A stretch of DNA of 63,241 nt, filler included, from Stramenopiles sp. TOSAG23-6 (taxonomy: Eukaryota), in assembly GCA_900128565.1 (NCBI GenBank). It is 4 parts of 4 records of this genome, joined end to end, with 100 filler letters (N's around TTAATTAATTAA, not from the genome) between each part and the next. Parts side by side here need not be neighbours in the genome. Positions count along the whole stretch, not along the records: positions 1 to 15,814 come from LT636105.1; positions 15,915 to 31,668 come from LT636106.1; 2 more parts are not named here. One strand, 5' to 3'. The position numbers and the translations under genes are program-made. The notes beneath the pieces are model-generated. The model was not told the origin of the DNA and did not search any database. It saw only the letters and a program-made list of their open reading frames with translations. Below are positions 1,262 through 30,900 of this stretch, piece by piece (position 1 is the first letter of the stretch; each line of letters opens with the position of its first letter).

Positions 1262-4200
1262 ATGCCAATAAGAGTTTTATCACCAGAGTTAGTGCGCGAG
1301 ATTTGTTTAAGTCACCCAGGTCTACGAAACTTGAACCTTTCTTGTAATGAGATTACTGTTGTCGCTAACCTTCAGGTCCTACAGCGACTAGAGACACTAA
1401 ATATATCTCAAAATAAAATACACACACTTGATTGGACTAGTTTCATTGGATTACCTATGCTTGCTAAAATTAATGTTTCTCAAAATAGTGTAGAGAATTT
1501 GATTGATAGTCCAAATACTTGTAGGCTGCGAGCTCTAAGTTTTGTTGATCTTTCAAACAACTCGCTTGTTGATTTGACTTCCACTTTGAAATCTTTAGCA
1601 AAATTACCCAAATTGTCCACTCTTCGTCTTTTGGGAAACCCTCTATGTACACATATTAACTATCGGACGAAAGTGCTACAGGAATTACCACATTTAACTT
1701 ATTTAGACGATGAATTCATTTCCTCAGCGGAGAGGAGGTACATTCGTTTGTTAGAGGTTGATAGTGCCGTTGATGGTGATTTTAGTTTATCCTTTCATAA
1801 AAAACAGAGGCGGACATCACCGATTATCTTAGAAAGTTCAGATTCTTTTCATTTACATAGTCCGTCGGAAAAATCTTCACCACGCATAGAAGAATATTCA
1901 TCAAAAAGAGATAAATTAGAAATTGACGCATATTCACCAAAAAGAGATAAATTAGAAATTGACGCATATTCAACTGCTGAAAATCATTCGTCTGCAAGAA
2001 GTTTGTTGCGAGATCGTATGAAAGACTCTGATAAGAAAATAGAATACGACGAACTAGTCAAAACATTACATGCCCAACAATCAGACTTAAATAGTTTGCG
2101 AAAATATTTTGGTGTTGAATTGAATTCTGAAGAGAAATTTGAAAAAAAATTTCAAAATGTGCAAAATTGTAGTAATAACATTCTATGTACGAGTGGAAAT
2201 ATCTCAATAGATCACAAAACGAAGTTCAGAAATAAAGAAAATAATTTCTCAAAACTTCAAATTGAGGTTCAAAGTCAAACAGAAATCAACAACAAAAATA
2301 GATTACGTATCGAAGAAGAAGTCAAATTTCGAACGAAGGAACTTCAAAAACAAGCTGATTTAGCAAAACTTCGTGCTGATGCTATAGAAAAAACCTTAAT
2401 TATTCAAGAAAAAGCATTAGCAACAGCAGCATTTGATTCAAATAAAACTAAAACAAGCCCTAATCAAAGTAAACTGCCTCCAATGACTTCAGAAAGTTTT
2501 GCTTTACTTTTAACACGTTGGAGGACAAGTGTTTTTGAAATGAATATTGTACTTTGTCCATTTTTCAAATTCAAATTCATTTTTTTTTTTAAATCATACC
2601 TAACAAATTTCAAACTTATTTCATATTTCTTCATAATGCTTCAACAAGAACAAAATAAGTTACTTATAAAACTACTTAAAGAAGAACATAACATTGAAAT
2701 GGAAAAAATGCGTGATGAAATTAACGATTCACAAAGAGAAGTCAAAATATTAGAACAAAAAGTTCAAGCTTCCGTCGCTGGAAATGATTTACTGAAATCA
2801 ACCATAGCTGAACAAATAAGAAAAGTCGAATCACAAGCTCAGGAAGAAAAAAATTTAAAAATGAAACAATTGTATTTTATAGTACAAAAATGCGCTGCAA
2901 TGTTCGAACGTAGTGCAATACAAAGCGGTGAACTTGTCGAAACTGCTCTTACCGAATTAAATAGTTATTGTCATCGAGTTTCTTTTGCTAAACGACGTTT
3001 AAACATGTTGCAGAGTTTACTAAAGCAAAAAAAAAATTCTGTTCATAATGAGATGAAAATTTTACAAGAAAGATATGATAAAAGACGTGTTGATGAAGTA
3101 CCTCAAGAGGAGAAATTGTCCAATGCATTAAATCCTGACAAAATCAAAAATATAGAGAAAGAAATAAATACTTCTCTGGTTAATACAAAAAATCCATTTA
3201 AAAATATTAACATTGCTGAACCACTAAAACAATCAGAATTAATGTCTTTATGTACATTTTCATCATGATTTTTTTTAAAATTTATTTTTCATACGAAATT
3301 TTGTACCTAACAAAAAAAAATATATATATATATTTCACAATATATCACATCACGAAATACGCTCGGAAGCTATTCGATTAAGTAAAGAAAGAAGTTTATT
3401 ATTACGTCATATCCAGTTAGATCGTCAAACAATGTTGCAACATCAAAGTTTTAGAGAGGAAGAACATAAAAAGTATGTTTGTGATTTAACTAGAAAAAAA
3501 TCTGTACTTGAGCGGCAACTTGCAGATAATAAATCTGCATTTGCGTCTGAAAGTTTACGACGAACTGCATTAGAGTCTCAATTGGTTGAATTACATACTA
3601 TTATAGAAAAAAATAAATCGGACAATGCCAATATGCGTATAGAAATGAAACGAAATGCTTCATTTATGCAAAAAGAAAAAGCTGAAGCATTACGCATGGC
3701 ACAAGAAGAAGCTATTGTATCAAGACAAAAAATGTCCGTGGAAGCATCTCATGTACGTTTTCATATTTTATTTTTGGTAGAAAATTTTGTAGCGAACTAT
3801 TTTTTACTAAAAAAAAAATATATATATATATATATTTTAGTAAAAATAACCCTAACCCTAATATATATATTTGTACACTACAGTTACGAAGAGATAATAC
3901 AAAACACATTATTCGTTGTCGTCATTTAGAACGTGAAATAATTCGTTTAAAACAGGATAGAGACAATCACGATGTCTCTACTGAAGAATATTGGAAATTA
4001 AAAGTAGGTGAAATGGAAAAAAAAGTTGAAAACGTTCGTAAAGAAAGAAACGCATTACTCTCTGCTTTACGAGAAAATGAAAGGAAAAGTAATTTTAAAA
4101 TGGATACTGATCAGATTGCAGCTAGTGGGAGTAGCCGAGAAAATAGTTTTATTACGCCATCCGGTGCATGTTCAGGATCAGGTGGAACTTCAAATTCGTC

Positions 4201-4522
4201 TGTTGTTGGTAGAGTTTCTAAATCAAAAAAATATAATGTATTTCCAAAACAAATGACAGAAAATAATCCACTTTGTATAAAGGATGAAAATCAATTGAAT
4301 GTAGGTGTAGGGTCAGGTTTACCTAACCCTAATCAATTGAATATATCTTCTTTATGTGATTCATCAGATGAAGATAGTTATAGAAATAGTAATAACGTAT
4401 CTAGAACAGTACATGTCAATAGTATGATAGATGATGTTGGAATGTATGGAAGGAATGGGGATATTAAGAATACATTAGATGAACTAGATGCATTGACTGT
4501 GGCTATATTAGATGATGAATGA
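1262..4522 (+). CDS. N-terminal LRR + CCHCR1(HCR)-like coiled-coil protein (exons 1262-2548, 2642-3251, 3346-3752, 3884-4522)
   Basis: LxxLNLSxNxI repeats with LRR cap (GNPLCTHINYR); spliced motifs LLTRWRTSVFEMNIQ, RVSFAKRRL, KERNALLSALRE, LDELDALTVAILDDE resemble CCHCR1 from recall. Confidence 0.7.
1895..1972 (+). repeat. 36-bp in-frame tandem duplication (YSxKRDKLEIDA x2)
   Basis: tattca[t/c]caaaaagagataaattagaaattgacgca at 1895 and 1931. Confidence 0.9.
2549..2641 (+). mobile_element. Introner-family intron I3, 93 nt, GT...TT, in frame
   Basis: aatatt|GTACTTTG...CATACCTAAC...CATATTTCTTCATAATGCTT|caacaa; TT on both sides; removal deletes a Phe-rich insert from a coiled coil. Confidence 0.75.
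3252..3345 (+). mobile_element. Introner-family intron I4, 94 nt, GT...AT
   Basis: ttat|GTACATTTT...CATACGAAATTTTGTACCTAAC...CACAATATAT|cacat; joins two ORFs in frame (MSLSHHEIRSE). Confidence 0.85.
3753..3883 (+). mobile_element. Diverged family intron I5, 131 nt, canonical GT...AG
   Basis: cat|GTACGTTTT...degenerate core GGTAGAAAATTTTGTAGCGAAC...AACCCTAACCCTAA...CACTACAG|ttacga; restores frame to ORF 4013..4522. Confidence 0.8.
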
Positions 4523-4813
4523 AAAATTTCTATAATTTTTTTTTCAATTTTTAAATTCATTTCAAAATAAAGCTGGCATATTTATGCATTTGGACAATTG
4601 GTTACACAAATTCAAAATTTGATATATATTATATTTTGAATTTGACAGACCTGCTTTTTCTGTAATAAAATGGCACATTAAATTTTGATTTGGCATAAAT
4701 GGGAGAAAAATCTTTTTTTTTTGACAAGCGAAGAAGAGAGATGACAGTGTGTGTGACACTTATAAGTTATACCGCTGTTGTCACTCTTTCCTTTCTTTTT
4801 TTCGACATTCCAA

Positions 4814-6408
4814 ATGTATCATACATTTACCAAATTGGATGTTGAGGATGTAGATGCTGAAATTGATGCATCTTTGGATACGTGGAGTAAGAAGAGAAAA
4901 CGCGTATTGGGAGGTGTTTTGTTGTTTTCGGCATTATTTCTTATGATCAACACTGTCAGCTTGAGGGGGGATACTTCTTTTCGAAACCTTGCCTCGGATA
5001 AGGAATCGGAGAGCAAACATGAAGTTCAAAACGAACACCACGAGGAACGACGCCAAGAAATGAAAAAAAAACATCATGAGGAAGAACAGCACAAGGAACG
5101 TAAGCACGAGATGAGAAAAAAGCATCACGAGGAAAAGATTGCTATCAAAAAGGAACATGAGAAGTTGACGAAAGAATCTGGAAAAGATAAAAAGTTGGAA
5201 AAAGGTTGGGAAAAGATTGAGAAAAAAGACAAAGATGAAAAACCGAAAACAATTAAAAAAGTTCAAGCTCGTGGAAACCTAGCTTTGCAACGTGTATTGG
5301 ATGATGAACATATCGTACCAAGTGGTTTAGTCTGGGTTGGTCATTCTCCTCCTGACACAGACTCTGTATTTGCTGCGATCGGTGCTGCACACTTGTTCCA
5401 CGGAGAAGCTGCGATTGGTGCACCAGAAAATCCAGAATCTGAATGGTGTTTACAACACTTCAAGCTTCCAACACCAAAATTGACAACAGAGCCCAAATTT
5501 CAAGAGGAAGGCATCAAGTGGGGGATTGTTGATCATGGTTCCTCTGGAAAACTTTCCCCGGGTGTTGTTGAACGTAATATTGAAGTTGTTATTGACCATC
5601 ATCAACTTGCTGAAGACGAAGTAAGTCAAAAACATCCAATTAATGTGACTATTCGTCCATGGGGTTCTACGTGTACATTTTCATTATGAACTTATAATTA
5701 ATTTATTTTTGTATGAAAATTTCGTACCCTAACGATTTTTTTCATGATTTCGTTTTTTTTTTTCACAATACATGTACAATATTGGCATATATGTATGCAG
5801 ATAAGCGTGTTACTGTGCCTGAAGATATTGCTGGGGGATTATTTTGTGGGATTGTATCCGATACTCTCAACTTAAGATCTCCCACTGCAACAGATTTTGA
5901 TCGCAAGGCGTTAAATGCTCTCGGTGATATAATTGGTCTTAATAATGAAGCAAAAAGAATTGAATTTGCACGTGCTTTATTCACTGCCAAAAGTAATGTT
6001 TCACACTTATCAATGAAAGAAGTTGTTCTTTTGGATTTTAAAAAATATAGTCTCCCAAATGATGAAGTAAAAAAATTTGGTTGGGGCAGTGGAGAAACTG
6101 TAAATATGGAAGAAACTATCGCTAAAATTGACGAAATAAAAACAGCAATGCTTGAAATAAAGAATGAAATGGGATTGGTATACATATTTTATTCGATTAC
6201 TAATATTGATCCTACGGTTTTAAAACCATTTACGTATATTGTTGTAGCTTCGCCTGAAGATGAGGAATTGGCAAAGAAGGCATTTCCAAACGGGAAACCA
6301 GTCCCTGGAAAATCAGGTTTAATTGACGTAGGAGAGCTAATATCACGAAAAGTTCAATTTATTCCAGGCGTGGAGGATGTTTTAGAAAGTGGAACTTCAG
6401 AAAAGTAA
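4814..6408 (+). CDS. Family II (DHH/DHHA2, Mn-dependent, PpaC-like) inorganic pyrophosphatase with N-terminal membrane anchor (exons 4814-5672, 5774-6408)
   Basis: Motifs GHSPPDTDS, IVDH, IDHH, RPWGSTCTI (across the junction), GIVSDTLNLRSPT, DFK, SRK; hydrophobic VLGGVLLFSALFLMI. Confidence 0.9.
5673..5773 (+). mobile_element. Introner-family intron I6, 101 nt, GT...AT
   Basis: acgt|GTACATTTT...TTCGTACCCTAAC...TTCACAATACAT|gtaca; no AG inside; restores GSTCTIL. Confidence 0.85.
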
Positions 6409-6454
6409 TTTGTTTTACTTATTTATTCAACTTAGCGATTAAAAAGAAATATTG

Positions 6455-7222
6455 CTATACTAAAAAATGTTTTCTTCGTTTTTCTCGCTTTGATTTCATT
6501 TCTAATTGCACTTGTCGTCTAACTATTTTAGACATTCCCGAATGTGCTCGACTTACTCCGAGTACATTTGGCCATAATTCTTGTGTTATATTTGTATGTA
6601 TCATATTGTTATTTGTATCTATCATATTGTTATTTGTATCTATCATATTGTTATTTGTATCTATCATAGTATTATCATTATTTTCAATAGATGTTATTGC
6701 ATTGTTTTTTACTATGCTTGACGAAGATAACATAGGAGTCTTCGATATAGATTTCTGTTGAATTGTCTCAATACTTGCAATATATTTGGGATTTTCACCA
6801 GTTTTTGAGTTTTCCTTTGATGGTACTTCTTCATCATATAAAATGAACTTTTTCTTCTTTGCTTGAATTTTAAAATTCTCAACAATACAATCAATATCGA
6901 GAGTAGTGTCTATCAACCATTCGTGGATTTTCTTACGGGAGTTAATAAAGTTTTCCACGTGACCATTTGATTGACAATCCCAGGGATTTACATTTTTGGA
7001 ATCTTTTGTTGTTGACATGTAATGTTGTTGTGAGATATTTGATAGTCTCTGAGCACGCTGAATAAACATGAGCACATTAGATGCATGATCATTTACATTA
7101 GTAACACTATTTTCTTTACTCTTTGTCTCTATATTAATTTTATTATTACGTTCTTGTCTCAAGAGAAACTGTTGTTTTGCACGTGCAAAGCGAGGCATGG
7201 TATCTATAGAGTCTGAACTCAT
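6455..7222 (-). CDS. Hypothetical protein with MIDTNNN repeats
   Basis: ORF 6455..7342, first ATG at 7222; no recognised domain. Confidence 0.55.
   Translation of the reverse strand: MSSDSIDTMPRFARAKQQFLLRQERNNKINIETKSKENSVTNVNDHASNVLMFIQRAQRLSNISQQHYMSTTKDSKNVNPWDCQSNGHVENFINSRKKIHEWLIDTTLDIDCIVENFKIQAKKKKFILYDEEVPSKENSKTGENPKYIASIETIQQKSISKTPMLSSSSIVKNNAITSIENNDNTMIDTNNNMIDTNNNMIDTNNNMIHTNITQELWPNVLGVSRAHSGMSKIVRRQVQLEMKSKREKRRKHFLV
6590..6670 (-). repeat. 21-bp coding tandem repeat (~4 copies)
   Basis: tatcatattgttatttgtatc repeated on plus strand. Confidence 0.85.
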
Positions 7223-7455
7223 TATGTGAGTGGCACTTCTCAATGAAAATCTAAGGAAAGGATTTGAAATCCAGAACTTTTTCAAATGTGCATACCATGA
7301 AGATACTTGTATTTCAATGCAAAATGTATGCAGGCTAGCCAACTTGGAACTAACTATCTAATTGAAATTCGAATTTTTCCTTTTTTTCTCTCTTTTTTTC
7401 TCTTTTTTTTTCTCTTTTTTGTCGACTTCATTTGTAATTTCAAATTTGAATTTTG

Positions 7456-7475
7456 AAAATGCCACGTGGCATTTT
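7456..7475. promoter_or_regulatory. Perfect 20-bp palindrome containing a G/E-box (CACGTG) in the divergent promoter of PRP31
   Basis: aaaatgccacgtggcatttt. Confidence 0.5.
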
Positions 7476-7586
7476 TTACTTTTTTTTTTTTTCGAGTTCG
7501 TCGTCGTCGAATAATAAATCGAACTCGGTGTGTGAGTCGTGACGACGAACTTCTTCTTCTTCATTCTTGTTTGATTTGGAAAAGAA

Positions 7587-9182: not shown

Positions 9183-9296
9183 TAAAAAGAATATCTAATA
9201 TAAAACATTGAAATTTATTGAATGTATTGATACTACTTATATCCAAATACATACTTCTTTTTTTAAGTCTATTGTATACATTTTATATCCAAATAC

Positions 9297-11483: not shown

Positions 11484-11595
11484 CTTTCCCAAGTCAAAAA
11501 TGAATTATAATGGCTAAATCTGGATATTTTTTAAAGGTTGTATTTTTACTACGACTAGAACAGAACGCCTGAAATTTTTCACAAAAAAGCTAGCC

Positions 11596-11611
11596 TAGGG
11601 TTAGGGTTTAG
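11596..11611. repeat. Telomeric motif in PEX14/ACBP divergent promoter
   Basis: tagggttagggtttag. Confidence 0.8.
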
Positions 11612-11810
11612 ACCACCATTGACTCTCATTTCGTCATGAGTGCGTCATGAGTCATTGAGTCATTATTGACCATCCATTCGCATTGACCACACTCTTTTTC
11701 ACGTCGGAACTGTACGCGAGATATTTTTTTTTATCATGAACACTCTCACAATGTCATAATAATTTTCTCGAGATTAGAGGTTGTCAATTATAAATTACGG
11801 CTAAAGTATA

Positions 11811-14271: not shown

Positions 14272-14511
14272 AATAGATCTATATTGGTGTTGTTATTGGG
14301 ATTACCACAATCTATCAGAAATATATCGCCTAAATTACTATCACCGGCCGAGGGTACTATACTTGATTTCATACTAGAACTCCGCAACTGAGCTGACTTG
14401 ATTTTCATTTCTGTTGTGATTTGATGGCTCTGAAACGAAGGTGTACACTAACTACTAACACTACAGTATTTGTGGTAAATATTACATTCTTTCACTGGGT
14501 ACTTTTTCGTG

Positions 14512-15713
14512 ATGGATTGCTCTGTTACTGACGGATACATATGGCATATTTCTCCACCAACAAAACAAAAAATTCAATCAAAGCTAAAGCAGGAAGAGTA
14601 TAAGGAAAAGGTGAATAATTTACTTGAATGGGCCAAAACAAATGGAGGTGACGTTTCTCGTATTCGTGTTTCTCACATACCTGGTCGAGGACTCGGCGTT
14701 GTAGCAACGTGTGATATTGATATGGGCGAACCAATTCTCAGCATTTCACCCGCAATGCAACTGACAGTATCGTCTGCGTCAAAGTCTCCTCAAGGCCAAA
14801 CATTAATTCAGTACAGCAAACAAAATCAACGGCCTGTCAGTGCACGGTGTTTAATATATGCAACTCTTATAGCTGCGAAATTTGATAGAGCACATCATTG
14901 GCATGAATATGCAACTCTATTACCCCAGAAACATTCTGATCCTTTATGGTGGTCAGATGAAGATTTAAAACTATTGCAGGGAACACAGTTAGCTCATGAT
15001 GTTCCAGTACATTTAACAAAACTAAGATCATTGTATACTGAATATTTCCCAATTATTTCACAAATACACCCATCAATTTTCCAACCCAACCTTTTTACTT
15101 TTCAGAATTTTTTGTGGGCGCGATCCTGCTTAACCTCAAGGTGTTTTCATGAAGATTCTCTTCGTCAGCAATGTGCAACTTTATTAAAAACGACTGTCGA
15201 AGACTCAACTTTATTAAAAACGACTGTCGAAGACTCAACTTTATTAAAAACGACTGTCAAAGACTCAAACATTCTTCAAGATTGTCCCGCTGTAATGTTC
15301 CCTGTACTAGACTTGACGAATCATGATACAACGGCTGTTGTTCGTGTAGGCATGGTTACATCGACCACAAACGTTGGCATTTCGTGTGTTTCTCGAAATA
15401 TCAAAGTTGATGAGGAAATACCAAATAATTACGGTTCTCGCTCTAATTATATACTTCTTCTTAGTTTTGGATTTTGTATGTTAGATAATTCTGCTGATAA
15501 TGTTCCAATGAGAATGGGTGTTCGACCTGGTAGTTTAAGTAATTACAAAAAAAAAATATTAGATATATGCAACTTAGATGTGACAGAGCTCCACTATATT
15601 TCACTGGATAATTTAATGCCTACTCGTCTCTTAGCTTGCATTCGTTTACTGCTAATTGATGAACCTGTGCTTACTGCATTTCACAATGATTCTTTTAATT
15701 CTACGAGTCCCAT
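14512..15713 (+). CDS. SET-domain protein lysine methyltransferase (SETD3/Rubisco-LSMT class), 3'-truncated by contig end
   Basis: GRGLGVVAT, FLWARSCLTSRCF, MFPVLDLTNH, NYGSRSNYILLLSFGF. Confidence 0.85.
15176..15268 (+). repeat. 30-bp in-frame tandem repeat x3 (TLLKTTVEDS)
   Basis: caactttattaaaaacgactgtcgaagact repeated. Confidence 0.9.
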
Positions 15714-15814
15714 GTATGTTTTTTTTTTTTTTTTGAGCCTTAAAAAAAAATCGAATTTATTTTTTATAAAAATTTTGTACCTAACAAATTTTAGTTTTTT
15801 TTTGAAATATTTTT
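15714..15814 (+). mobile_element. Introner-family intron I7 (3' end lost at contig end)
   Basis: cccat|GTATGTTTT...AATTTTGTACCTAAC...GAAATATTTTT then N. Confidence 0.85.
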
Positions 15815-15914
15815 NNNNNNNNNNNNNNNNNNNNNNNNNNNNNNNNNNNNNNNNNNNNTTAATTAATTAANNNNNNNNNNNNNNNNNNNNNNNNNNNNNN
15901 NNNNNNNNNNNNNN
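15815..15914. other. Artificial contig linker N44-TTAATTAATTAA-N44
   Basis: Six-frame stop spacer, identical at three places. Confidence 0.97.
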
Positions 15915-17113: not shown

Positions 17114-17217
17114 ATGTATTTTGGAAAAATATTTCAAAAAAAATTCTTAAAATATTTGTTAGGTACAAACTTNCGTACAAAAAAACAAATTCAAATTTTC
17201 AAAAAAATAAAACATAC
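17114..17217 (-). mobile_element. Introner-family copy I8, 104 nt, GT...AT, outside any long ORF
   Basis: aat|GTATGTTTT...TTGTACCTAAC...GAAATATTTTTCCAAAATACAT|tatt. Confidence 0.85.
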
Positions 17218-17414: not shown

Positions 17415-17429
17415 CTAACCCTAACCCTA
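17415..17429. repeat. Telomeric motif upstream of cyclin H
   Basis: ctaaccctaacccta. Confidence 0.8.
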
Positions 17430-17648
17430 GCGCTAGCGCGAAAATCAGATTCTTGACTTGACAACAACAAATCAAGCCTCGAGCCCTACAATCAAAAAAG
17501 ACTCAAAAAACAAAGTTTACCTCGGTAAAAAGAATTCTGATAGGCCGATTGTGTAAGACCATTGAGCATTTAGAAGATATTTTTGTCTGTGTGGCTCTAC
17601 AGTTAGGACATTGCTTCATCAATTTCTCATTAGTGACCAGTTGATATA

Positions 17649-19142
17649 ATGGCAAAATTCCAGACTTCGACACAGCGGCAATTTTGGATGTGGAGTATGG
17701 ATGAGTTGAGCTCTTTACGCAAACAAACAAATAATTCATTATACCGTCGCTTTTCCACGACTGAACCATTTTCCCCGGATCCTGATGGATCGTGCAAAAT
17801 ATCAAGAAAGCCTCCTGCTACGCCTGCAACCGCTGTGGCTCAACAACTGACAGAGTTTGCTCTTTTATCGCCTGAACCACTCGCACCTTCTCAAGGTGAT
17901 TCCAACGTTGATAGTGAAAGGAAGACATTAACTGGGCGCAAACGGTCGCGGGAAAGTACCGAAACAGCAACAACACCAAAGCAAGTCATTAAATTTCTAT
18001 CCCCTGATCAAGAACAGTTACTCCTTGAGGGTTATCAAACAAAACTTTTTAAAATTTGTTCGCAGCTTGCACTGAGCGATCGCGTGACTGCGACAGCTGC
18101 TATATTCTTTAAAAGATTTTACGTCCACCATTCTCTTATGGAGTTTGATGCCCGATATATGATGCTCACTTCTATATTTACAGCTGCAAAAGTGGAAGAA
18201 CAAGAAACTCGTGCAAAAGCTGAGAAAATTGCAGATTTATGTTCATCTAATAAGGTACCCGTTGAGTCTTCAACAATCTTGGCTAACGAATTAACCCTAA
18301 TTATGGGATTAAAATGCAATTTAGTGGTACATCATCCTTTCCGCGCCTTGAGAGGTTTCGTGATGGATATTGATAAAGAAGGTAAAAAACGGGCGAATGA
18401 AATCGCTCGCAATGAAAATGTACAGAATGAAGGGATTGCATTTCGATTATGGGAGGAGCCAGGTCGGAAAGCACGTCTCGAACAAATTCGACTTACAGCA
18501 CACGAAATAATCAAAGAATCTCTAGTCACTGATTGTGCGCTTTTATTTTCCCCATCACAGATTGCACTTGTAGCATTATCATACGCAGTGGACAATGCAT
18601 TCCAAAATGAAGATGGATATAATGGGGAAGATGTGATTCAAGCATATTTGAAACAAAAATTTCCTTCGAAATGCACAAGTCTTGTATCAAGTATACAAAA
18701 AGCTAGAATATTAATTGATGCATATAGAAAAAAACAAAATGAGTTAATAGGTCCCAGTGAATCTGCAGAATCTGCTAGAAAGAAACATACACGAAAATTG
18801 CGAAAAATAACGAAAAGGTTAAAACTTTGTCGTGCAGTCATGTATATTTTATTTTTTTTCAAANTTCNANTTTNTTTTNGTACGAAANTTTNTACCNAAN
18901 AAATTTTTTAAGTTTTTTTTTGAAATATTTTTCCAAAATACATCGTTCCAATTATTGAAAAAAACCGCGAAGAAAAACGAAACAGAGAAAAATCTGAATT
19001 AGCAAATTTGAAAACTCATCGTAAAGCTATAAAAAATCAACAATTATTACTTGGTAATAATGAAAATGGGGATAAAACTGAGGATAATAATAGTGATTTT
19101 GTGTTGAGGAGACCCAAGAAACTTTGTCGGAAAAAATTATAA
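17649..19142 (+). CDS. CCNH: Cyclin H (exons 17649-18841, 18944-19142)
   Basis: N-terminal FQTSTQRQFW, cyclin box ATAAIFFKRFY...AAKVEE, LVVHHPFRALRGF, LLFSPSQIAL. Confidence 0.9.
18842..18943 (+). mobile_element. Introner-family intron I9, 102 nt, GT...AT
   Basis: gtcat|GTATATTTT...GAAATATTTTTCCAAAATACAT|cgttcc; opens a terminal exon to stop 19142; many ambiguous bases inside. Confidence 0.85.
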
Positions 19143-19342
19143 ATTGAATTTCAAGAAATTATAAAAATTTGGATTTTTATTGATGACTGATAGTAATTCT
19201 CGACACTCTTGGGGTATTATTTATCCTATTTAATCCCCAAAACGACATATACAGTTGTATCGAAATGTTCATTCATTGCATTGATCATCCAAAATTCACA
19301 ATGTTTTTTTCCTAGGCAACATTCAGAGAAGTTTTTAGAAAT

Positions 19343-19802
19343 TTAGAAAACTTTTTCAATTGTTTTGGGATCTATCCATTGATCCCACTCATCATTAAAT
19401 GATTTATAATGAATTTTTAAAAGAGGTCCCACGTAGTTTTTTTTCACAATAGCATCAAATAAAATTTTTTCTTTGCCCCAACACGCAACTACGGAATCAC
19501 CTTCACTAAACATTGGCCTATTTTCATTTGATATATCATTCGTAACAAATGTAGTATCTTTCGGCATCAATTCATCAATTAGTTTATACTCGTCAAATTT
19601 TTTATCCCATTCATTATAATGGACTTTCAGGGCATTTGCTTTACGTTTTATACTAATTATTGTAGCTTTTCGAAACTTGGAATCGTATGATTTTATTAAG
19701 ATTTCATCACCAACATGGACCTCGTATGACGTCATTTATTTTTGAAAAATATATCAAATTCAAAATGTATTAGGCTCAAATTCAAAATTCATATAGCACA
19801 AC

Positions 19803-19859
<57 letters not shown>

Positions 19860-22760
19860 TATACACAAGGTAGGAAAAAAATAAATAAAAATTCCAATAA
19901 TATATTTCAACAATACATACGAAATTAAAATGAATAATGATGAAAAAAATAAATAAAAATTCCAATAATATTATCAACAATACATATGAAATCAAAATGA
20001 ATAATGATGAAAACGTGCATTTCAAAATTTTCTTTTGTTCCTTTTTCTGTTTTCTTCGATGTTTTTTTTTTTAAACGGTCTTTTCCGCAGACTCGACATC
20101 GTAGCACTTTATGACTGTTTAATAAAGTGCAATACTTGCAACTCCATTCCTTTTTCTCTATATATACAATTAACCCACAATCAGCAATATTTTGTTTATT
20201 TCTATGTTCCTTTATTTTGGAAATAGACTTAGGGTTAGGTTTCTTTTTTTTTGTATTTTGTATGTCTTTATAATGTCCAGTATTATTTGATTTGTCTGAT
20301 GGATCCAAAGTGTTCAAAATACTATTTTTTGTATTATTTTTTGTACTATTTTCTGGATGATTTACTACTGATACACTTCCATCTGGATAAGATATACAGG
20401 TGTCAAGATGTTTTTCTTCATTCTTTGAAGCACTAATAACTTTACTCATATTCGATATTTTTTGGAAAATGTTTTTGCATCTATCCATCAGATTGTCAGT
20501 CTCNTTTTTTTTNCNTTTCGTCAGNTTTTGACAGTAAAATTGACAAACCAAATCCTAACGACGTTGTTGCATCATGTATACGTTCTTCAATGAATGCCAG
20601 CATTACATCAATACCAGATAATAATAGTCGCCAATCCCATTTATTATCAAATACTTGAGGAGATGCTGAGAACGTAAATCCAACAAAATCTACATTCGCA
20701 TAACTTTGAACTAAATGGCGTAAAGCACGAAGAAGAGTCAAAGTTTTTATCGAGCATATACCAATTTTATTAGGGTTAGGGTTAGGGTATATACCAATTT
20801 TATTCTCATGACAAAATCGCATATTTTTATGAGTTATTTCGTTTGAAGTTGCGCTACGATTTGTTCTAGATCTCTTATTTTGTTTTGTATTCAATTCATT
20901 TTTATCTGAAAAACATCTTTTATTTTTAGAGTTTCCATTAGAGTTAGTTGTAGAGTCATTTAATTTGGAAAAATATTTCAAAAAAAATCTTGAAAAAAAA
21001 TGTTAGGTATAAAAGTTCGTACGAAAACCAAAAAAAAAAAACAAAAAAAAAAAAATTTAGAATTTGAAAAAAAATAATACATACATTGAATTTATCTTGA
21101 GGTTTCTTTTTTTCTATAATTGATCTTACATTTGGCGCATGTAAGGCATGTAAAAAATCTGCACCAGCAAATATTATATCGAGCATCGATTGAACAGCAT
21201 TCCAAACAATTTTTCGATGATTTATAGCATAAGGCCACATAGAATTCAGGCTACATTTTGTATCAAACGAATTTCGAATTTGCGTGTTGCGCTTATCTTT
21301 TGAATTCCCTTGTGAATTAGACTTTGTGTCGCATTTTGTACCTAATATATTTATACCGCGTTCCCCGAGCCAATGATGATCCTCAACACCGACCAAGTAC
21401 TGTGAAAAAATATGTCAAATTTGAATTTTGTAAGGTATGAAATTTCAAATTTGGTTTAAAAAAAAAAAAAAAAAAAAAAATCTTGAGCTACTTACATATA
21501 ATAGCCAGATCGTATTAATTTTTGTCTATTTTTTAATGAAGATTGTTTTATTAACTGTGAATTGGGGAATGCATTTGAAAAGAATCTTGGTATAGATTTG
21601 ATACCTAAATGAAACGTTTTACCTACAATCAAGGGAATGTCTTTTCCCCCGAAATGTCCTAGGGTTAGGGGTTTTCCCTCGAAATGTCCTAGGGTTAGGG
21701 GTTTTTTGGTTGGAAATTGTCGGATTATAAAAAGAGTCTCCGGTGGTAATATTAAAAGATCACCAGTATTAATACAATGATTCCATATACGTGCGTAATC
21801 AATCATTGGGCAACCATGTAATAAATTCTCCAATGGAGAATTATTTTCTAACTTTCTAGGGTTATTTTCTAAATTCGTAGGGTTAGGGTTTCTAGTGTTT
21901 GACTTATTATCAGTAGGGTTAGGGTTTCTAGTGTTTGACTTATTATCAGTTTGAGATTGCTGGTCTACAAAGAAATTCGGTAATAACCATGCCTTATCTT
22001 CTCTGTGTATTGCTATAATTTCTACACATCCACTGATACACGAAATAATTGTATTAAAAGGATGCTGTTCCCAATTACCAAATTCATTATTTTTGGAATG
22101 TCCAATAGTTAAAAATTGAAAAGAATCTCCTGGAAACGAATGACTTGAAATATCAGCTGATGTATCAGATGTATCAGATTGTATAGAATTAGAATTTCCT
22201 AATTTGGTTTTATTACCACTTTGAAGCCGTAAGATATCTAACCCTAGACATTCAGGCAATCTAAATCGGAAACGCTCGGCTCCTTTTGTAACACCAAATT
22301 TCCAATTATTGATTTTGTATAATAAACTTCTTCTAGACGATACGTGGGGCTTGGAAATTAGTTTATCGTCTTTGTCTTTTTTATTTTTCAAATGTTTACC
22401 ATCGCCGGATAAAATATGTAGAGCTTCGCGAAGTTTCTTCATAACTGTAGATCTTGGTGTACCGTCTGGAAAAATCTCTTGTATGGGAACTAGTTCATCC
22501 CCCAACATAGTTATTAGATAATCACTGATTGTACCATCATTATTAAGCCACTGATTTGCAAAAGGACAAAAACAGTAATCATCAACAATTTCTGAACTAT
22601 CTGATACAAGGTTAGTGTGACGCGATCCAAAACCAGATTTATACGAAATAACTATGGGGTCGCCACTACAAATATACTTTCCAATAGTTTCTTCGAGTCC
22701 TTTCTGTCGAATACTAATCACCTCTAACGGTAGAAAAGAGGTGAAGGTGTCACGTAACAT
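19343..22760 (-). CDS. Putative chromatin protein: cupin/JmjC-like region, RanBP2-type zinc finger, two Tudor-knot/chromo-barrel domains (3 introns; frameshift near 20500 at ambiguous bases)
   Basis: Five collinear ORFs joined by introns I10-I12; WSCKYCTLLN..RCRVCG; VHYNEWDKKFDEY and IHYKSFNDEWDQWI; GDLLILPP cupin-like motif. Confidence 0.6.
19734..20018 (-). mobile_element. Diverged family intron I10, 285 nt, GC...AT, enlarged by internal duplication and microsatellite
   Basis: gaaat|GCACGTTTTCATC...GAGCCTAAT...ATATTTTTCAAAAAATAAAT|gacg; restores frame (FEMTSYEV). Confidence 0.7.
19803..19860. repeat. (TAGA)n microsatellite inside intron I10
   Basis: agatagatagat... read directly. Confidence 0.95.
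20958..21084 (-). mobile_element. Introner-family intron I11, 127 nt, GT...AT
   Basis: ttcaat|GTATGTATT...TTTCGTACGAACTTTTATACCTAAC...AAATATTTTTCCAAATTAAAT|gactct; phase 0 join. Confidence 0.8.
21395..21495 (-). mobile_element. Family intron I12, 101 nt, GT...TT
   Basis: tatat|GTAAGT...TTTCATACCTTAC...CATATTTTTTCACAGTACTT|ggtc; the nearby CAG gives an out-of-frame join. Confidence 0.7.
21650..21950 (-). repeat. Two in-frame tandem duplications (30 bp and 36 bp), each unit carrying TAGGGTTAGGG
   Basis: KPLTLGHFxG x2 and TDNKSNTRNPNP x2. Confidence 0.85.
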
Positions 22761-23074
22761 CAATGAATGTTATAACATTAAAACAATTATTCCTTAATCA
22801 TATGATTCATATCATATTGATGATTCTGAATATTTCTGATGAATAGAAAGAATCTCAAGTACTCACGACTCACGAGACGAGTCAAGTCACTCAAGTGACA
22901 GTCACGACACAAAAGAAGAATTCAAATGATTTATTGAGATTTCGTGTTTTGCATAAGATATATCGAACGTTTCAAATAAAGGACATGTTGACTGACCCAC
23001 TCTAACCAACTTTAACAAAACTTATATCAAAAGCATTCAGAAAGTGAATAATTATTGTACGGCTGAGATTAACT

Positions 23075-26000
23075 ATGGTTATTGTTGTTCCAGATTTCAC
23101 AAAGGGTCCAAGTTCGTGTATGTCTCCGACAATAAGACCTCGCACAGTGCGCAGCATACTACGTGACACCAGTAGAGAACTAATAAAGCCTTCGCGTACT
23201 CCGTTGCCTCATGCATCTACCTTTAGAGAAAAAGATGAACTTGAAGGATTAATAAAGCAAAAGGAAATCAAGAAAATCCAGGCTAGTAGGAGACGACAGA
23301 AAGCAAAAATACAAATGCGTAAAGACCGGATCGTCAGGAGGGGTGCTAGAATTTCCCCAGCGGAAGAAGCCGCTAGGACGGTCGTACCAGGCTTAGATTC
23401 TCCGAAAGATAAGTCTTACATTGGTAAAAATAACAGCGAATGGCGTCCATTGGATTTTGCACCTTTGCCGCTACCAGAATTTGGTATAGTTCGTAGTAAT
23501 GTGCGTATTCATAGAGGTAAGTGCAATTCGAAGAAAGAAAAAGCACTAAAAACATTGTCTGAAAAGGGATTCGCCGATCCTTTGACAGGAATAGTTTCTC
23601 TTATGGGACATACTCCACACAGAAATAATAAAATAGACAATGTTCAAAGTGTAAAATCTGTAAAGAATCAAAACGTCGGCCATAACACGAACAGGAAACA
23701 AAAGTTACTATACTTTGATTTGGGATATGGTCATGGACACTCGAAAGAACACATTGTCGAAGACAACTTTGAAGAGACTTCTATGAATGCAACTGGGGAG
23801 GATAGTTCTCAGAATAATACTAGAGAAAAGAGTTTCCAAAATACTACCAAACAGGGTAACTCTGAAATAGAACAAAATAGTGGTGATCTGGATAGCAAAA
23901 ATCATAAAGTATCAGAATCTGATAAAAGTATTAATGACGCAACAGCTGCTGAATTACTTCTTAAGGGTTTTCGTCGTCGTAAATCTAAGGTGAAGGCAAC
24001 GGAGAGTTTAGCCGATATTTTAAAATTGGCAAAGAACCAGAAAGATGGTTTATATCGACATTTGGGAGAATTAGAACAAGAGCAAGTTTATTTAAATATG
24101 CATAATTGGGTAAACAATTTCAGTCGTGAAAAAACAGAGTATGCTTCGAACGACGTATTTCTTCAAGTAAAGTTGGCATCTGTTTTTTCCATTACGTCAG
24201 ACATGTCTACAACCTCAGATCTCTCAAGAGATAGGGTACATGCTATTCTACAACTTTTGATTGAATATGGTGAAAGACTTGGGGAAACATCACCATTGGC
24301 TATTGTTGCTTTAGCAGTTTGTAAACATTCGATAATGCATGCACGCGAACCAGAAGGTCAAGGCGAAGCACACACGACAATTGAAAATCTTACAGCGCTC
24401 TTTTCAGGACAAAGAGTTGAAAGTGATGAAGAATTGCAGATTAGCCTTGCGATGCTGAGTATATTAAGTGGTGGTAATTCGGTACAAGAACGTTGGAAGT
24501 TCTTGCGAAGGCATTTACTATATTTCAATGCGTATGCGCGAAATAAGGGCAAATTATATATGGAAAAGAAAAGACGTAAAGCTATAGTTTTTAAGCTTGC
24601 GCGACGTGATAGACAACGAGTAGTTGAAAAGCGCGCAGCTGAGAATATAAGAATGTGTTGGAGTTCGGCATTTCTTTTGCCTTTTCTTCTTCACTGGAAA
24701 AAGTTTGTCTTAATGAAGGAAGGTAAGAGAATTCAGGAAGTTGCTGCGCATTTTCTTAATGCTGTTAGAAGGAAGAGTACTGTTTCATACTTTCAATCGT
24801 GGGTAGTTTACGTAGAACAGTCTAAATGTCGTAAGGCTCTTGCATTAAAAGAAGGACAGTTAAAGCGTATACGCATCTTAACCGGAAATGTCAAACGTGT
24901 AAAACAGTCCATACTCAACAAACAGAAAGAGAAGGAAATTGTTGCTGCCAAAGTTAAAGAAATTCAAGAAAAACTTGATGATGCCCTCCGTATACTTCGC
25001 TTACCAGAAAGACAGCCCCCAACACTAGCTTCAATCCTGAAAGGGTTCTGTAGTGCAGCAATACCATTAGAGCGTGTGCTTGACTGTGGGTCACACGATA
25101 TTTTAAATGATATCTGTCGAGGAGGCTCAGGTACAGAAAGATTTCAGCCCATGATGATGTATGATTCATCGGGTAATAGTAAAAATGTAGGTGAAGAAGA
25201 GCAAGAAGATCCTTGGGATGAAACGAAAGAAGAAGAAATCAGGTCTTGGGTACCAGGTAAACATCTACTTACAGTGGTTAAAGAGAAAACACCAGCATTC
25301 AGACCATTTAGTACTCGAGTGGGACACAGATTACTTCGCTGGTTGAATTTTCAAGTTGCTGAAAGTGGAATTTTAACTGAAGAAATCTCTAAATTAATAA
25401 ATGCGACGAATGGGGAAAGCATGTATTTGGCAAAGCCCCTTCAAGATGGTAAACTTTTGACAACTATTATCCGCACCCTTTCGAAGAAAGAATTTGCAAT
25501 GAACAGAACAAAACTCATATATCCTTCGTTTTTCAGGTGCATTCATGTCGAGCGAAATGATGCTACAGGTACAAAAGAAGGTGTGTACTACTGGGCTCCA
25601 GGTCACGTCATTCCTCGAATGAAATATGAGCATATTGGACCAGGTTTCAAACTATCTGAAAAAGAATGGCTAGAACGCTTTCCTGAAAATGAAGAAGAAT
25701 TGGTCCCTGGGAGTTTTGGTTATTTAACCCGAGAAGAGTTGAATCAGATGACTAATGAACCTATTGCCTTTGATGATGCAAAATTTGCATCTTTGAGCAA
25801 TAAAGAGGTTCGTTGGGTTTATGTAGCATGGCTGAGAAATGGTGTGCGTATTGTGCTCACCCCAGATGAATTTAAACAACGATTTCCAGGTGATAAAGGT
25901 TTCGATTTTAAAAAAATGGTATCTCTTGAATCTTTATCTTGCCTTAAAGCTGCTCTGTCCGAGATACAAAATTTATTTCAGTGTGGTCGTTTTGTAAACA

Positions 26001-27797
26001 CCACTGAGAAAATTACAGGGAAAACAGAACCTCCTACGGCAGAGGAACTACAGATCCAAGCCGCAAGACTTGAAAGGTTAAAACAACGTGAATTATCAAC
26101 AGGTATCGTTGTACATGTCATGAGTAAATATTGTGGTACTCGGGTTGCCATACCAACTGAAAGTGTATTAGAGCCTTTCGCCTTCGCTCTAATTGGTCAA
26201 ATTTGCTGTCTCCATCCAAATACGCAAATAACAGCACAAATGCAAGTTTACCGTGACAAAGCAACGGTTGCCGCTTGTGAAGCTATTCAAAAAAAGTTGT
26301 TTTGGATCAATTCGCACATAATTCGAATTTTCTATCATAATGATGTCGCACCGGTAGATCTAAGCTTGGATGAGTTAGATGGGCGTATTACTAAGCTTAG
26401 ATCTGTGCGACAACAGCTATTCGAAAACTATATAGATGCAATGAATCGAATGCAAGTATGCCGCGCCGAGCGAGCTGCTTTCAAAGAGTGGACTAGCGAC
26501 ATTATACATGTTTCTAATCAGTCACTGTGCACTACCATACTTTCTCGGAAAGTGCGCAAAGAAGAAGATTTGGATGATGGCACTTATACTACTGTTGATT
26601 CTGTACAATTGCAGGCAACTTTCCAGAAAATCGGAGGAGAAATTGTCAAAGATAGTACGCTACAAGAAGACGAAATCAAAAAAATATCCCAAGTTCTTCG
26701 CCAACGAATTCGTGATTTAAAGCGCATTTTTGCGTTTTACTGTGCCATGGGGACATCAAATGATGGTAATGATGATGAAGTCGGTGGCGAAGCTTCATTA
26801 GATAAGGCTGAATACTGGCGCTGGGTAAAAGATTGCAAATTTCAGAAGAATCGTAAAGCTTTGCCTTCAGTTCGACTCGATTTAATCTTCCAAAATGCAA
26901 TGACCGATTATAGTAAAACAGGGAAAGCTCGAATAGCAGGATTATCAAGCAACGACTTGGTTGCAAAACAATGGATCAATTCATTGGTTCGCATTGCTTG
27001 TTATCGTTTTCAACATGTGAAGCCGCCATTAAAATTGCATAAACGCGTGGAGAAATTATTACACGAATGGATAATTCCTAATGCATGTATGTTTTATTTT
27101 TTTTCAAATTCGAATGTTTTTTTCGTACGAAATTTTGTACCTAACAAATTTTTTTTCAAATATTTTTCTAAAATACATGCTCTGTCGACATAGATGTGTT
27201 CCGCGATCGGGTGGCTTTAAAAGAAGTTCAAGCTCGTCTTACAGCGATGCGAAGATTCTTGAAGCCAATATTTAATGAATATGCTGCTGATGACGACAGT
27301 GATGCTGCTATTAATTCACTTGGCACTGTCAATGTAAATGAATTAACTACATTTGCAAAAGAATGTAATTTATTTGGTCCTTTGTTTGGATATCGATCAC
27401 TGCGAACAATATTTTGCTACTGCCAACAGGAAGAGGAAGCATTAGAGGAAAACGAAGAAGATGGAGAAGAGTCAGAAATGGTATATTCGGAATTTAAGGA
27501 GGTGGTCGTTGCAATAAGTTGTTTTATGCGACCTAATCCATATGTAACTAGTATGTATTATTTATTACACTTTTGTATTCATATATCCAACGTATTACCC
27601 ATTTTTCTTGTTTACTACACAGCAGTTTTAACACTTGTATAAATATTCATCATATATATACTTTTCTTTTCAATATCAACAACACTACAGTGGAAATCAA
27701 TGCTTATAATTTTGTAAATGAAATGGTGATGCCTGCTTTAGTAAGTTTACCACGATTTGGTGGTAAAAAAAAACTTAAATGGAAGAAACCAAAGTAA
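23075..27797 (+). CDS. Large hypothetical protein with coiled coil and C-terminal EF-hand-like region (exons 23075-27086, 27179-27550, 27691-27797)
   Basis: 1372-aa ORF plus two exons joined in frame; LKRIFAFY...LDKAEYWRWVKDC, MVYSEFKEVV. Confidence 0.7.
27087..27178 (+). mobile_element. Introner-family intron I13, 92 nt, GT...AT
   Basis: gcat|GTATGTTTT...TTTCGTACGAAATTTTGTACCTAAC...AAATATTTTTCTAAAATACAT|gctct. Confidence 0.88.
27551..27690 (+). other. Canonical GT-AG intron I14, 140 nt, lacks the family core
   Basis: acta|GTATGT...CACTACAG|tggaa; in-frame join. Confidence 0.8.
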
Positions 27798-27905
27798 TTT
27801 TATATAAATGTCAATGTAACTATTTTAACGAATATTGCTATTTATTTTTGTAGTAAAGATATATCTCGTAACTATATCCAACTACTACATTCGTATATCA
27901 CAAAT

Positions 27906-30900
27906 CTACCGTTTACCTCGATATCTTAACCCAGAAGAAGTAGAAGACGCAGAAGAAACATTCTTACTTCCCGTCGAAGTAGACTTTGTTACATTTTCGG
28001 ATGTACTACTTAATAATTCCGCTGCGGCAGCTTTCCGTCTACGCCAGTACATAAAGGCGCATCCTCCCCACACAAAAATATTTCCAGAACAGAAGATCAG
28101 TAAACCACCAAACACTTTAATAAATGTCATAAATACTGGCATTAAATCAGAAAGAGTGGTTGCCTTCGCACTTTCCATCATTGCTGAAAATATATCTGGA
28201 GAAAATACCCACGTACAGAACCTATCCCATACAAACGTACCAACTAATGCTAGAGAGACGAGATACATTACATGAAAACGAAATGCATCATCAGGAAATG
28301 GTTCCAAATGAATTAAACCATTTACATATGGGCTTACAGCCCACGCGCATGCACCCACGCCAGCAAAACATAAAAATAACGACAAAAATAAAGCGTGATT
28401 TTCAATTGTACCTTTCATCCATGGTCTACCTTTGTAGTTTACAAATAAAACAGCAACGATTGATGATGTTTCTACCAAAAATACGACTGTATTCATCAAA
28501 TTTGGCATAAATGGACGTGACCACATAAACATAATATCTGCAAAAGGGTCGGCAGTTACATCTGTAATGTCAGATTCTGAGGAATCCGATATTGCTTGGA
28601 GTGCATCATAATCATCATCATATGTCTTTGCAGCATTGCGATTGAAAGCAACCACAGCTTTTAATGCTTTTGGGCCCATTGCTTCTGTTGCTAGATGTAC
28701 TGCTGAAACCATACAATACAAATGTATGCAGGCCTGGCCAATCATTGAAATAAATATTGTCGGGTGAAATAGTGAATGCAATGGCCGTGTACGATGCATT
28801 TTATCTACAGGAGTTGCGTATGAAAAGGCTAAAGATGCAATCATAATAAGCCAAGACGAAGCCATCAACTGCCGTTCCGAACTTCGTGCACCTTCAAGTG
28901 ATAAAGCTGAGAGAGTGTACGCTGAAATTATACATTCAAGCATCATATATAGTAAAAAAATATGTTTGAAGTTTGAATTTTGTTAGGCGCGTGACAAAAT
29001 TGGACAACAAAAACAAATTAAAATTGGAATGAATGATGAAAACATACATGATCTGTTGCTGTTGAAGGGCACTAAGTAAAGTACAACGCCCTTGGCGAAT
29101 AATATCAACAACCGTGCGAATCGTTGGCGTCCTTGAGGTAAAAGGAGCAGCCACTGATGCATCACCTGGGCGCACAACAGGAAGCATACCTCCCATATCT
29201 TCCATATCACCTAAAGCATCCATTGGATTTCCAGAATCTGCTTTGTACACATTATTCTTCGAACCAAGTCTTCTTGATTCCATTTGCATTTCATTTTTGA
29301 CTCGCAAAGTTACATTCTTTAAAGCAGTCAAATTTGCCATGAAACCTGTTTGCCCTTCTGCCGCAAGTCTTGCAAGTTCTTCTTCCAGCATTTCTTTTTG
29401 TTTTCCTGCCAATTCCTTTTGTTTTGTAGCGAGAATAGCTTTAGATTTTGCCTGCATCACCGCCTGGGAACGTTTTAAATCTTCGGCCTGTTTATTCAAC
29501 TCATCTTCAGTACTTCCAGCACTATTTTCAATTTTGGATAATGATGTTTTATCATCTTTAGCTGTCGTTGTGTTGGCATTGCCGTACCCTGAAAGCAATG
29601 CTAGGCCAACATCAGCTTGTTTTAATGCACCAACGTCATTACCACCATCACCACACATAAGAACATGGTGACCTTTACGCCGCTGCATCTCACGAATAAG
29701 TATTGTGAAAAAATATTTCAGAAATTTGAAATTCGTTAGGTATGATATTTTAACTAAAAATAAATGAATTCATTAAAATAATCAAAACGTACAATCTTGG
29801 CTTTTCCTTGAGGAGACATTCGAGCAAATACTTGAATAGCATCAACATGATCCCACAACGTTCCACCACTTTTCTCTGCTGCCGCTAAGAGAACTTTTTC
29901 TGTTACAACCAAATTATTATGTTTTGCAAGTTCAGGAATTCCTAAAGCATTAAAGGGAACAGAAATACGTTCTGATACATCACCCGTTGCAGAATTCCAT
30001 GTAAATTGTTCACCAGTACTATCAACAGTCAATACCAATGACGAATAGCTATCCGTACCGATTTTAGATAAGACATTCTTCTTAGAGTCACTTCCATTTT
30101 GTACAACATTGTCACGGCATATACCCACCTCTTTAGCAACATGAAGCGCTGTCAAAGGCGCATCACCTGTAATCATTGCAACGGAATGGTCAGATTCACG
30201 CAAGGATCCTATTACTATACGCGAGTCTTTGCGAATCATACAAGTGAATGCAATAAAACCAGCGAAATGTAAATTGCTTTCTACCCACTCACGAGATGGA
30301 CCATCACCACCTTCTGTACCGCATTCTCCCTTTGCACATTGTTTATAAGCGAGCGCAAGCACACGCATTCCATGTTCGGCAAGATGTCGATAACTCTCAT
30401 CATACCAAGATGGAGCAGCGCCTTCAGCAAGTAATGATCGTAAAGCTTCAGGGGATCCTTTGACAAGACAATATTTACCACTGGAAAGGCCATTTTGGCG
30501 CCCCTCAACTTTACACACAACACTCATTCTCTGAAGCTTCGACGAGAAATGATACCGATGAAGTATCTTTGAAGATGAAACAGCAGAATTTCGAGCTTTT
30601 TTTTCAACACTACAAATTTTATTACGAATATTATCTATATCCTTTTGTAAATCGGAAATTTGCATATTTTGTTCAGGAGTTGCAGGTGCATTACCCGATT
30701 TGATTAAATCATGTAAAGCCTTCAATTTTTCAGATACCATTTTTTCACGCTTTTTGAGATTAATTGTAGTACCAGGAGTAGCAGTGTTAGTATCTGCATT
30801 AAATTGCCATTGAACGCCTTTTAGAGCCGCGAGTTCTATAGGATCACCTACCATACCAACATCTTTAACCTTTACCAAAGAGTGACACGATGCAAGAACT

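Follow-up and report, generated by a model that had tools for sequence, protein, structure and literature searches.

The 63,241-nt stretch of DNA from Stramenopiles sp. TOSAG23-6 (assembly GCA_900128565.1) that was analysed here, hereafter the window, carries about 20 copies of one short element family, and every gene interruption found in these 63 kb is a copy of it. As an initial annotation had taken a 2-nt repeat at the two ends of these introns for a target-site duplication that supplies a 3' splice site without AG, we were interested whether the non-AG ends are really spliced, what sets the 3' cut, and whether the repeat stems from the insertion of a mobile element. The family was detected by repeat finding, a motif scan and an nhmmer profile built from 7 copies. 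The ends of the 15 complete copies were set by family alignment and reading-frame continuity; the remaining 5 copies are cut by contig or window ends. The element follows the pattern GTAYGTTTT…CGTACGAAATTTTGTACCTAAC…AAAATACAT (fuller consensus GTAYGTTTTATTTT..CGTACGAAATTTTGTACCTAAC..T-rich..GAAATATTTTTCCAAAATACAT) and consists of a yeast-like 5' splice site GTAYGT at its first base, a small hairpin GUACGAAAUUUUGUAC running into a branch site UACCUAAC, a T-rich tract and a UAC followed by two nucleotides. Most copies measure about 92-131 nt; two swollen ones reach 191 and 285 nt owing to tandem repeats inside them. A near-palindrome GTACGAAATTTTGTAC, conserved in the element core (e.g. 27126-27145), is predicted to form a 6-bp hairpin with a 3' arm overlapping the branch motif TACCTAAC; this hairpin may present the branch site or may serve as a transposase binding site. 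All 19 genic copies (14 complete and 5 cut), spread over at least 10 genes, lie in sense orientation. The single intergenic copy, complete and detected by the profile (17114-17217, minus strand), is located between two plus-strand genes, with AT on both sides and no long frame adjoining on either side.

Removal of the elements from RNA was followed by comparison with RNA contigs, which covered the N-free stretch 20526-31668 and considered the joints listed there. In polyadenylated (polyA) metatranscriptomes, two contigs, each from a different study (X10 record 4; X8 record 27), connect 29697 directly with 29793 and skip the complete minus-strand copy 29698-29792, which has GT..TT borders and a TT flank. 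A further contig (X10 record 2; polyA RNA, one study) joins 28943 to 29047 with flanks of 55 and 237 nt, skipping 28944-29046, which after a 1-nt slide allowed by the sequence is the GT..AT cut of the complete minus-strand copy 28945-29047 (flank AT). The three bridging contigs show 0-2 other letters each, and their joints bypass the next AG, located 9 nt further on for the 29698 copy and 23 nt further on for the 28945 copy. No bridging RNA contig was among those listed for the copies at 20958, 21395, 27087 and 31219, which says nothing either way. Outside this stretch, the complete copy 5673-5773 (plus strand, GT..AT, flank GT) interrupts a DHH/DHHA2 pyrophosphatase-like gene, and solved pyrophosphatase structures as well as three homologues align with IRPWGS-CTILAY across its junction without a gap. 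Exact removal of 5673-5773 is therefore required (IRPWGSTCTILAYMYADK), and the AG at 5799-5800 is excluded as acceptor; its use would cost CTILAYMYAD, a stretch aligned in the homologues. When the DHH exon was looked up in a database, annotated proteins nearly identical to it were absent and homologues had 39-55% identity, and a protein look-up of exon 3348-3752 (74-237 residues) gave no match. Exact removal keeps the long flanking frames joined in all 14 genic complete copies, with at least 80 open codons on both sides in 11 of them and a shorter flanking exon in the other three. Thus, the non-AG 3' ends are real and are spliced exactly, as confirmed by RNA and homology. The proposal that splicing removes the element plus one copy of the repeat, leaving the protein unchanged, holds for these three copies, and its corollary that the repeated bases need not be AG holds for AT as well as TT ends.

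It is consequently very improbable that ordinary GT-AG introns with the next AG as acceptor were merely mis-delimited. A next AG does lie in frame for the copies at 3252, 5673, 27087 and 29792, and the copy at 3753 ends with AG; however, such an acceptor is refuted by RNA for the 29698 and 28945 copies and by the homologues for the 5673 copy, and only 5 of 13 genic copies have the first AG past the branch site in frame, as many as expected by chance. Five of the 15 complete copies contain no AG at all, and others have an unused AG soon past the branch site. Stwintrons, in which nested introns create the acceptor, were rejected because of these five AG-less copies. Even less credible is a removal of the elements from DNA in a ciliate-like manner, or an origin of the RNA from alleles that never bore the insertion. 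Contigs cannot reveal a lariat, and the occurrence of the skipped form in DNA was judged from the listed joints alone; yet a DNA contig from 2024 seawater (X3 record 13, 28042-29730) passes through copy 28945-29047, and an RNA-library contig (X7 record 21, 29613-29853) keeps 29698-29792 unspliced, both as expected for removal at the RNA level. The conserved donor, branch site and T tract and the sense orientation of 19/19 genic copies are what RNA splicing selects, and to our knowledge no germline/soma nuclear dualism is known in stramenopiles.

The terminal dinucleotides of the complete copies were then compared with their flanks. Donors are GT in 14 of 15 and GC in one (20018), and a T precedes all 17 visible donors (the 15 complete copies and two lacking the 3' half, at the window start and at 15713), as had been annotated. 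The 3' ends are AT in 11, TT in three and AG in one copy, which differs from the canonical GT/GC-AG borders of most introner families surveyed. The annotated count of 12 of 15 copies with exon bases -2/-1 identical to the last two intron bases was reproduced exactly, namely AT/AT in 10 copies and TT/TT in two (2549-2641 and 29698-29792); the remaining three read AT/AG (3753-3883), GT/AT (5673-5773, where the G of the flank is a synonymous third-codon base) and AT/TT (21495-21395). A register shifted by 2 nt, with the intron as WT-GTA...UAC, mostly AT-AC, and the exon keeping the downstream repeat copy, would give the same mRNA for the repeat-matching copies; 8 of 15 copies would then read AT..AC, and 10 of 15 would share UAC as their 3' end. 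We consider this register improbable, because it turns the RNA-verified copies into AT..AT (29049-28947) and TT..AC, so that the terminal pair would not be constant, whereas GT or GC stands at +1,+2 in 15/15 copies. The conserved GTAYGT fits a donor recognised by U1 and U6 in the GT register. U12-type introns, in comparison, start with /RTATCCTT and place the branch site 10-20 nt before their 3' end. The copies start with GTAYGTTTT, no ATATCC of the U12 type stands at the shifted 5' end, and in typical copies 34-45 nt separate the branch A from the 3' end; an Rfam scan of the window gave 0 matches, including no U12-family RNA. The two registers would differ in the mismatch copies, giving Met or Leu at 21395 and His or Gln at 3753.

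The donor, the branch motif and the T tract are constant in the family, as is a UAC (in some copies UAU or UGC) with exactly two bases between it and the 3' end. UAC stands at that place in 10 of 15 copies, and the lone AG-ended copy 3753-3883 has its AG at the same UAC+2 place. In 13 of 15 copies the bases at +1..+3 are able to pair with those at -5..-3, and in 11 the minimum-energy fold closes both ends. From the constant donor, branch motif and UAC+2 and from the copies without AG we infer that the first step of splicing by the spliceosome is conventional and that the 3' cut would be fixed by its position relative to a terminal helix. Such a position rule would resemble the spacer rule shown genetically for Euglena (PMC12501133).

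At the DNA level, the short and imperfect inverted ends that had been annotated, GTAT(G)TTTT...AAAATAC, could be verified for the commonest subfamily, where they extend up to ATGTAT-TTTT/AAAA-ATACAT, and at least GUA/UAC can pair in 13 of 15 copies. Element copies are interrupted at three of the 6 internal contig ends and at both ends of the window. Element parts had a contig depth thousands-fold above that of the flanks in a seawater DNA run, a depth that is not a copy number, and repeat-driven joints among element copies in this run were disregarded. With short inverted ends, an intergenic copy and assembly breaks inside copies, the elements look like non-autonomous mobile DNA. Similar copies occur as introns in unrelated genes, have terminal inverted repeats and are removed from mRNA, as found for introners; removal was seen in RNA contigs for two copies and by homology for one, and is indicated for the 11 other genic copies by frame alone. 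AT precedes the donor in 12 of 15 copies compared to a frequency of 0.119 before all 1989 GTA of the window (binomial 2.6e-9), and C at -3 (6/15, P = 0.04) and G at +1 (8/15, P = 0.002) are enriched, together a palindromic CATG-like target. Flanks and ends covary weakly, with permuted flanks reaching at least 12 matches at P = 0.033 and a Fisher value of 0.029 for the association of TT with TT. Since AT is self-complementary, a direct repeat looks like an extended inverted repeat in each of the 10 AT/AT copies. For a duplication speak the 12 matching repeats, the two TT/TT copies, which are not readable as inverted repeat, the mismatches, which are single-base and not commoner than divergence among copies, the intergenic copy, which has AT..AT too, and the palindromic C-AT-G flank. 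The 2-nt repeat may be a target-site duplication. Tc1/mariner elements duplicate TA, which was found in 0/15 copies, the repeat being AT or TT; a TA duplication with a shifted element was rejected because every target would need to be ATG-TA-CAT.

Therefore, from the RNA joints, the ungapped homologues, the constant signals of the copies and their resemblance to mobile DNA, we consider it most likely, at a probability of about 60%, that the copies are non-autonomous introners similar to miniature inverted-repeat transposable elements (MITEs) in a host of the marine stramenopile 3 (MAST-3) kind, with a U2-type first step, a positional non-AG cut and, less surely, a 2-bp duplication. Each copy supplies most of its splicing signals, i.e. 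the donor, the hairpin-led branch site, the T-rich tract and the UAC with two following nucleotides. The excised RNA begins at the G of GT and includes the second repeat copy (mostly AT, more rarely TT, in one case AG); the protein neither gains nor loses anything, and AGs close by are passed over. An ordinary U2-type spliceosome would perform the first step. The 3' cut would fall 2 nt past a UAC complementary to the 5' GUA and would be set by position and not by the dinucleotide. The elements would have spread as DNA into C-AT-G-like sites with a 2-bp staggered cut, and in this less sure step the second AT or TT would be the target-site duplication. Accordingly, of the non-autonomous transposon with 2-bp duplication proposed in the initial annotation, the mobile-DNA appearance and the removal of one repeat copy by splicing stood, and the duplication itself stays at plausible.

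Several observations weigh against this explanation. RNA joints exist for only 2 of the 14 complete copies in genes, and frame and homology set the remaining junctions. Fold z-scores range from -3.4 to +1.3, mostly -2 to 0, which is too weak for a conserved RNA structure; the predicted end stem of the RNA-verified TT/TT copy is in another register, and GUA/UAC pairs are impossible in 2 of 15 copies. Concerning the duplication, 3 of 15 repeats mismatch, and the covariation (P about 0.03) rests on the two TT/TT copies. One of these, the 93-nt plus-strand copy 2549-2641 (GT..TT, flank TT), is degenerate and was matched by nhmmer in its 3' half only, with E = 0.05; as open reading frame (ORF) 1211..3268 continues through it, it may be retained in the mRNA. 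We know of no cut-and-paste superfamily that makes 2-bp AT or TT duplications, and the transposase-bearing element with the same ends for which a search had been suggested was not found, as no transposase occurred among the 28 reading frames of the window scanned with Pfam. In addition, no copies could be recovered from metagenome or viral contig collections, so that all tests are confined to the 63 kb. A 17-nt core motif hit 64 metagenome_contigs loci and 6 viral_contigs loci, and a 19-nt 3' motif hit 9 viral loci, with the element profile matching none of them beyond the motif. Six of the viral loci (L072-L075, L077 and L079) are one homologous AT-rich giant-virus region near a contig end, which holds the 19-nt 3' motif by chance and no other element part.

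A further point concerns the TT ends, which are clustered in copies with an ATACC branch variant. All three TT-ended copies are among the four copies of this branch (4 of 455, about 0.009), and one of them, 21495-21395, has an AT flank, so that TT may be inherited with the element, a reading that suits this clustering better than a duplication does. This would fit an origin without any duplication, in which the mobile unit is the whole intron with its own terminal WT, landing after a matching WT either by 2-nt microhomology at DNA or cDNA integration or by a target preference that follows the element's end; the repeat would then reflect target choice, and TT would be a heritable subfamily trait. 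Neither the inserted sequence nor the empty site would distinguish such an origin from a duplication; an empty site is not decisive because both leave one copy of the dinucleotide. The mobile unit would also equal exactly the segment that is spliced out. Short inverted ends and a palindromic C-AT-G target are, however, typical of transposase cuts, the intergenic copy 17114-17217 would need integration outside coding RNA, and no reverse transcriptase was seen among the same 28 reading frames of the window. We therefore regard this origin as rather unlikely.

Introns that derive from transposons and end without AG have been described before, in Fritillaria, Amoebophrya and Euglena; new is the combination of a textbook donor and branch site with a 2-nt AT or TT end. 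For Fritillaria borealis, the review PMC11282704, summarising Henriet et al. (2019), describes MITE-derived introns whose 3' splice site lacks AG and is made up of exonic bases that were duplicated; they end with AC or AT and are removed by a modified U2-type spliceosome. Short elements, inverted ends and a short repeat giving the non-AG end are common to both families. The Fritillaria 5' end is described there as non-canonical as well (AG-AC, AG-AT), with TAC as the duplicated exon motif, whereas the family in this stramenopile has a conventional GTAYGT and a branch site inside the element and a 2-nt AT or TT repeat. Micromonas pusilla and Aureococcus carry hundreds to thousands of MITE-like introners (Worden 2009 and Huff 2016, as reported in the relevant parts of PMC11282704 and cited in PMC7789003). 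As in our window, these are sense-oriented, with one splice site borne by the element and the other coming from the duplication, which for our family is plausible; according to these accounts, however, their borders are canonical GT/GC-AG and the 3-nt duplication must give AG, in contrast to the AT or TT found here. Amoebophrya, like the present host a marine protist, has repeated introns with terminal inverted repeats and short direct repeats over the exon/intron borders, for which a hairpin drawing the exon ends together has been proposed (Farhat et al., 2021; PMC7789003). In that description the terminal dinucleotides are conserved at neither end, direct repeats are 3-5 nt and inverted repeats 8-20 nt long, and U1 was not detected; our family retains GT (GC in one copy) as well as a strong branch site, and its inverted ends span only 3-8 bp.

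In the nonconventional introns of Euglena (Nomura et al., 2025; PMC12501133), fixed distances to a short terminal helix, and not GT-AG, set the cut sites, and helix-measured cuts like those of Euglena are reported in PMC12621601 for hemistasiid diplonemids. Direct repeats make the borders slidable there as here, and a MITE origin is suspected; the Euglena code N3-CDG ... CHG-N5-6 does without GT or branch-site consensus, and its machinery is given as unknown, whereas in our family only the 3' end is unconventional. The euglenid signature 5'-N3CDG ... CHGN5-6|R is absent, as +4..+6 reads YGT, ATT or AGT in 15/15 copies. The family is closer to the 'intermediate introns' of euglenids. Helitrons insert between A and T without duplication and have the ends 5'-TC ... 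CTRR-3'. The copies begin with GTA... and end with ...TACWT, which does not suggest a helitron-derived introner. One helitron-like introner family inserts between TT and TC according to the passage on it in PMC12130899. Our literature searches found no paper joining 'MAST-3' and 'introner', and the main-text passages on introns and splicing in MAST genome papers contain gene-prediction methods alone and no unusual introns.

The mechanism by which the second splicing step locates its target when AG is missing is still an open question. As most known AG-less systems (Euglena, Amoebophrya, Fritillaria) are odd at both intron ends, the changed part of the machinery is hard to pinpoint there; the copies in the window represent a natural mutagenesis series, with AT, TT and AG ends, a GC donor and swollen variants, that isolates the choice of the 3' site. 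Tentatively, and with more doubt than confidence, the spliceosome of this lineage might ignore the 3' dinucleotide altogether and cut two nucleotides past a UAC paired with the 5' GUA. If true, any 2-bp duplication made by a transposon would work as acceptor, and one element family could spread introns through a genome that otherwise has almost none. Splicing independent of AG would then have arisen by a third route, separate from the tunicate and the euglenozoan/syndinian routes, with donor and branch site remaining conventional. The family also appears to show how, in an abundant and uncultured lineage of ocean grazers, a genome poor in introns gains them from a mobile element, and gene predictors bound to GT-AG will mis-model or split most interrupted genes in such genomes.

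The remaining copies are as follows. Complete copies with GT..AT borders and an AT flank were found at 282-383 (minus strand; removal keeps the frame, and the first AG past the branch site is out of frame), 3252-3345 (plus; assigned by profile and frame), 18842-18943 (plus; in a cyclin-like gene, with several N inside), 20958-21084 (minus), 27087-27178 (plus; near-consensus and without AG inside) and 62667-62764 (minus). The AG-ended plus-strand copy 3753-3883, which has AG where others have AT (UAC+AG) behind an AT flank, is diverged and contains (CCCTAA)2 and (AT)n; its telomere-type (CCCTAA)2 lies at 3847-3860. Another telomere-type sequence, TAGGGTTAGGGTTAG in minus-strand reading, occurs at about 17425-17440, upstream of the intergenic copy, and in one contig of the DNA run CTAACCCTAACCCT adjoins an element. 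The minus-strand copy 21395-21495 has a GTAAGT donor, a TT end and an internal CACAG 5 nt before its end, which is out of frame. Both swollen copies are on the minus strand with an AT end and an AT flank: 19734-20018, the copy with the GC donor, contains (ATCT)n and a 67-nt unit twice, and 31219-31409 (GT donor) contains a 10-nt CAAAACAATC-like tandem unit, its junction reading CVI-I-ITSVVP. Among the cut copies, 5-85 (minus; 5' part, cut by the window start) and 15713-15814 (plus; at a contig end, 3' end lost, sense in ORF 14479..15870) show an AT flank. The 3' halves at 31614-31668 (minus; cut by a contig end) and 31769-31821 (plus; cut by a contig start) end with ..AAAATACAC ahead of an exon and with ..ACAATATAT just ahead of a dynein reading frame, respectively, and the 3' part at 63153-63241 (minus; cut by the window end) ends with ..AAAATACAT.

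The window is AT-rich eukaryotic DNA with about 35% G+C and consists of four contigs of about 15.7 kb each, joined at 15815-15914, 31669-31768 and 47481-47580. Each joining spacer reads N44-TTAATTAATTAA-N44, a six-frame stop spacer; the contigs were therefore joined artificially, and genes across the gaps are not necessarily linked. The DNA is gene-dense and almost intron-free, with unbroken reading frames of 4052, 1791 and 1683 codons, and Pfam matches include Prp31, a Sec7/BIG protein, RCC1, SCO1, a cyclin and the DHH/DHHA2 phosphoesterase. The Prp31 frame, which indicates that the genome encodes a spliceosome, is 97% identical to a EukProt coding sequence labelled GSMAST32, and the matches following it are stramenopiles; the host is therefore a marine stramenopile of the MAST-3 kind. 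A protein atlas look-up with the dynein region was uninformative on the lineage. Seawater metagenomes hold near-identical DNA, and polyA metatranscriptomes hold parts of it. The minus-strand gene 27906-31668 has at least four element-derived introns; from the motifs ITSVVP and MCGDGGNDVGALKQADVG we take it to be a P-type ATPase, and its three long frames matched no Pfam family at E <= 1e-5. Single N are scattered at 20504-20525, where the minus-strand frames 20496..21002 and 19925..20554 overlap in different frames; the two neighbouring genes may belong together, split by an assembly error. Finally, a 21-nt unit TATTTGTATCTATCATATTGT occurs in 4-5 tandem copies at 6589-6693, at the 3' end of the minus-strand frame 6455..7357.

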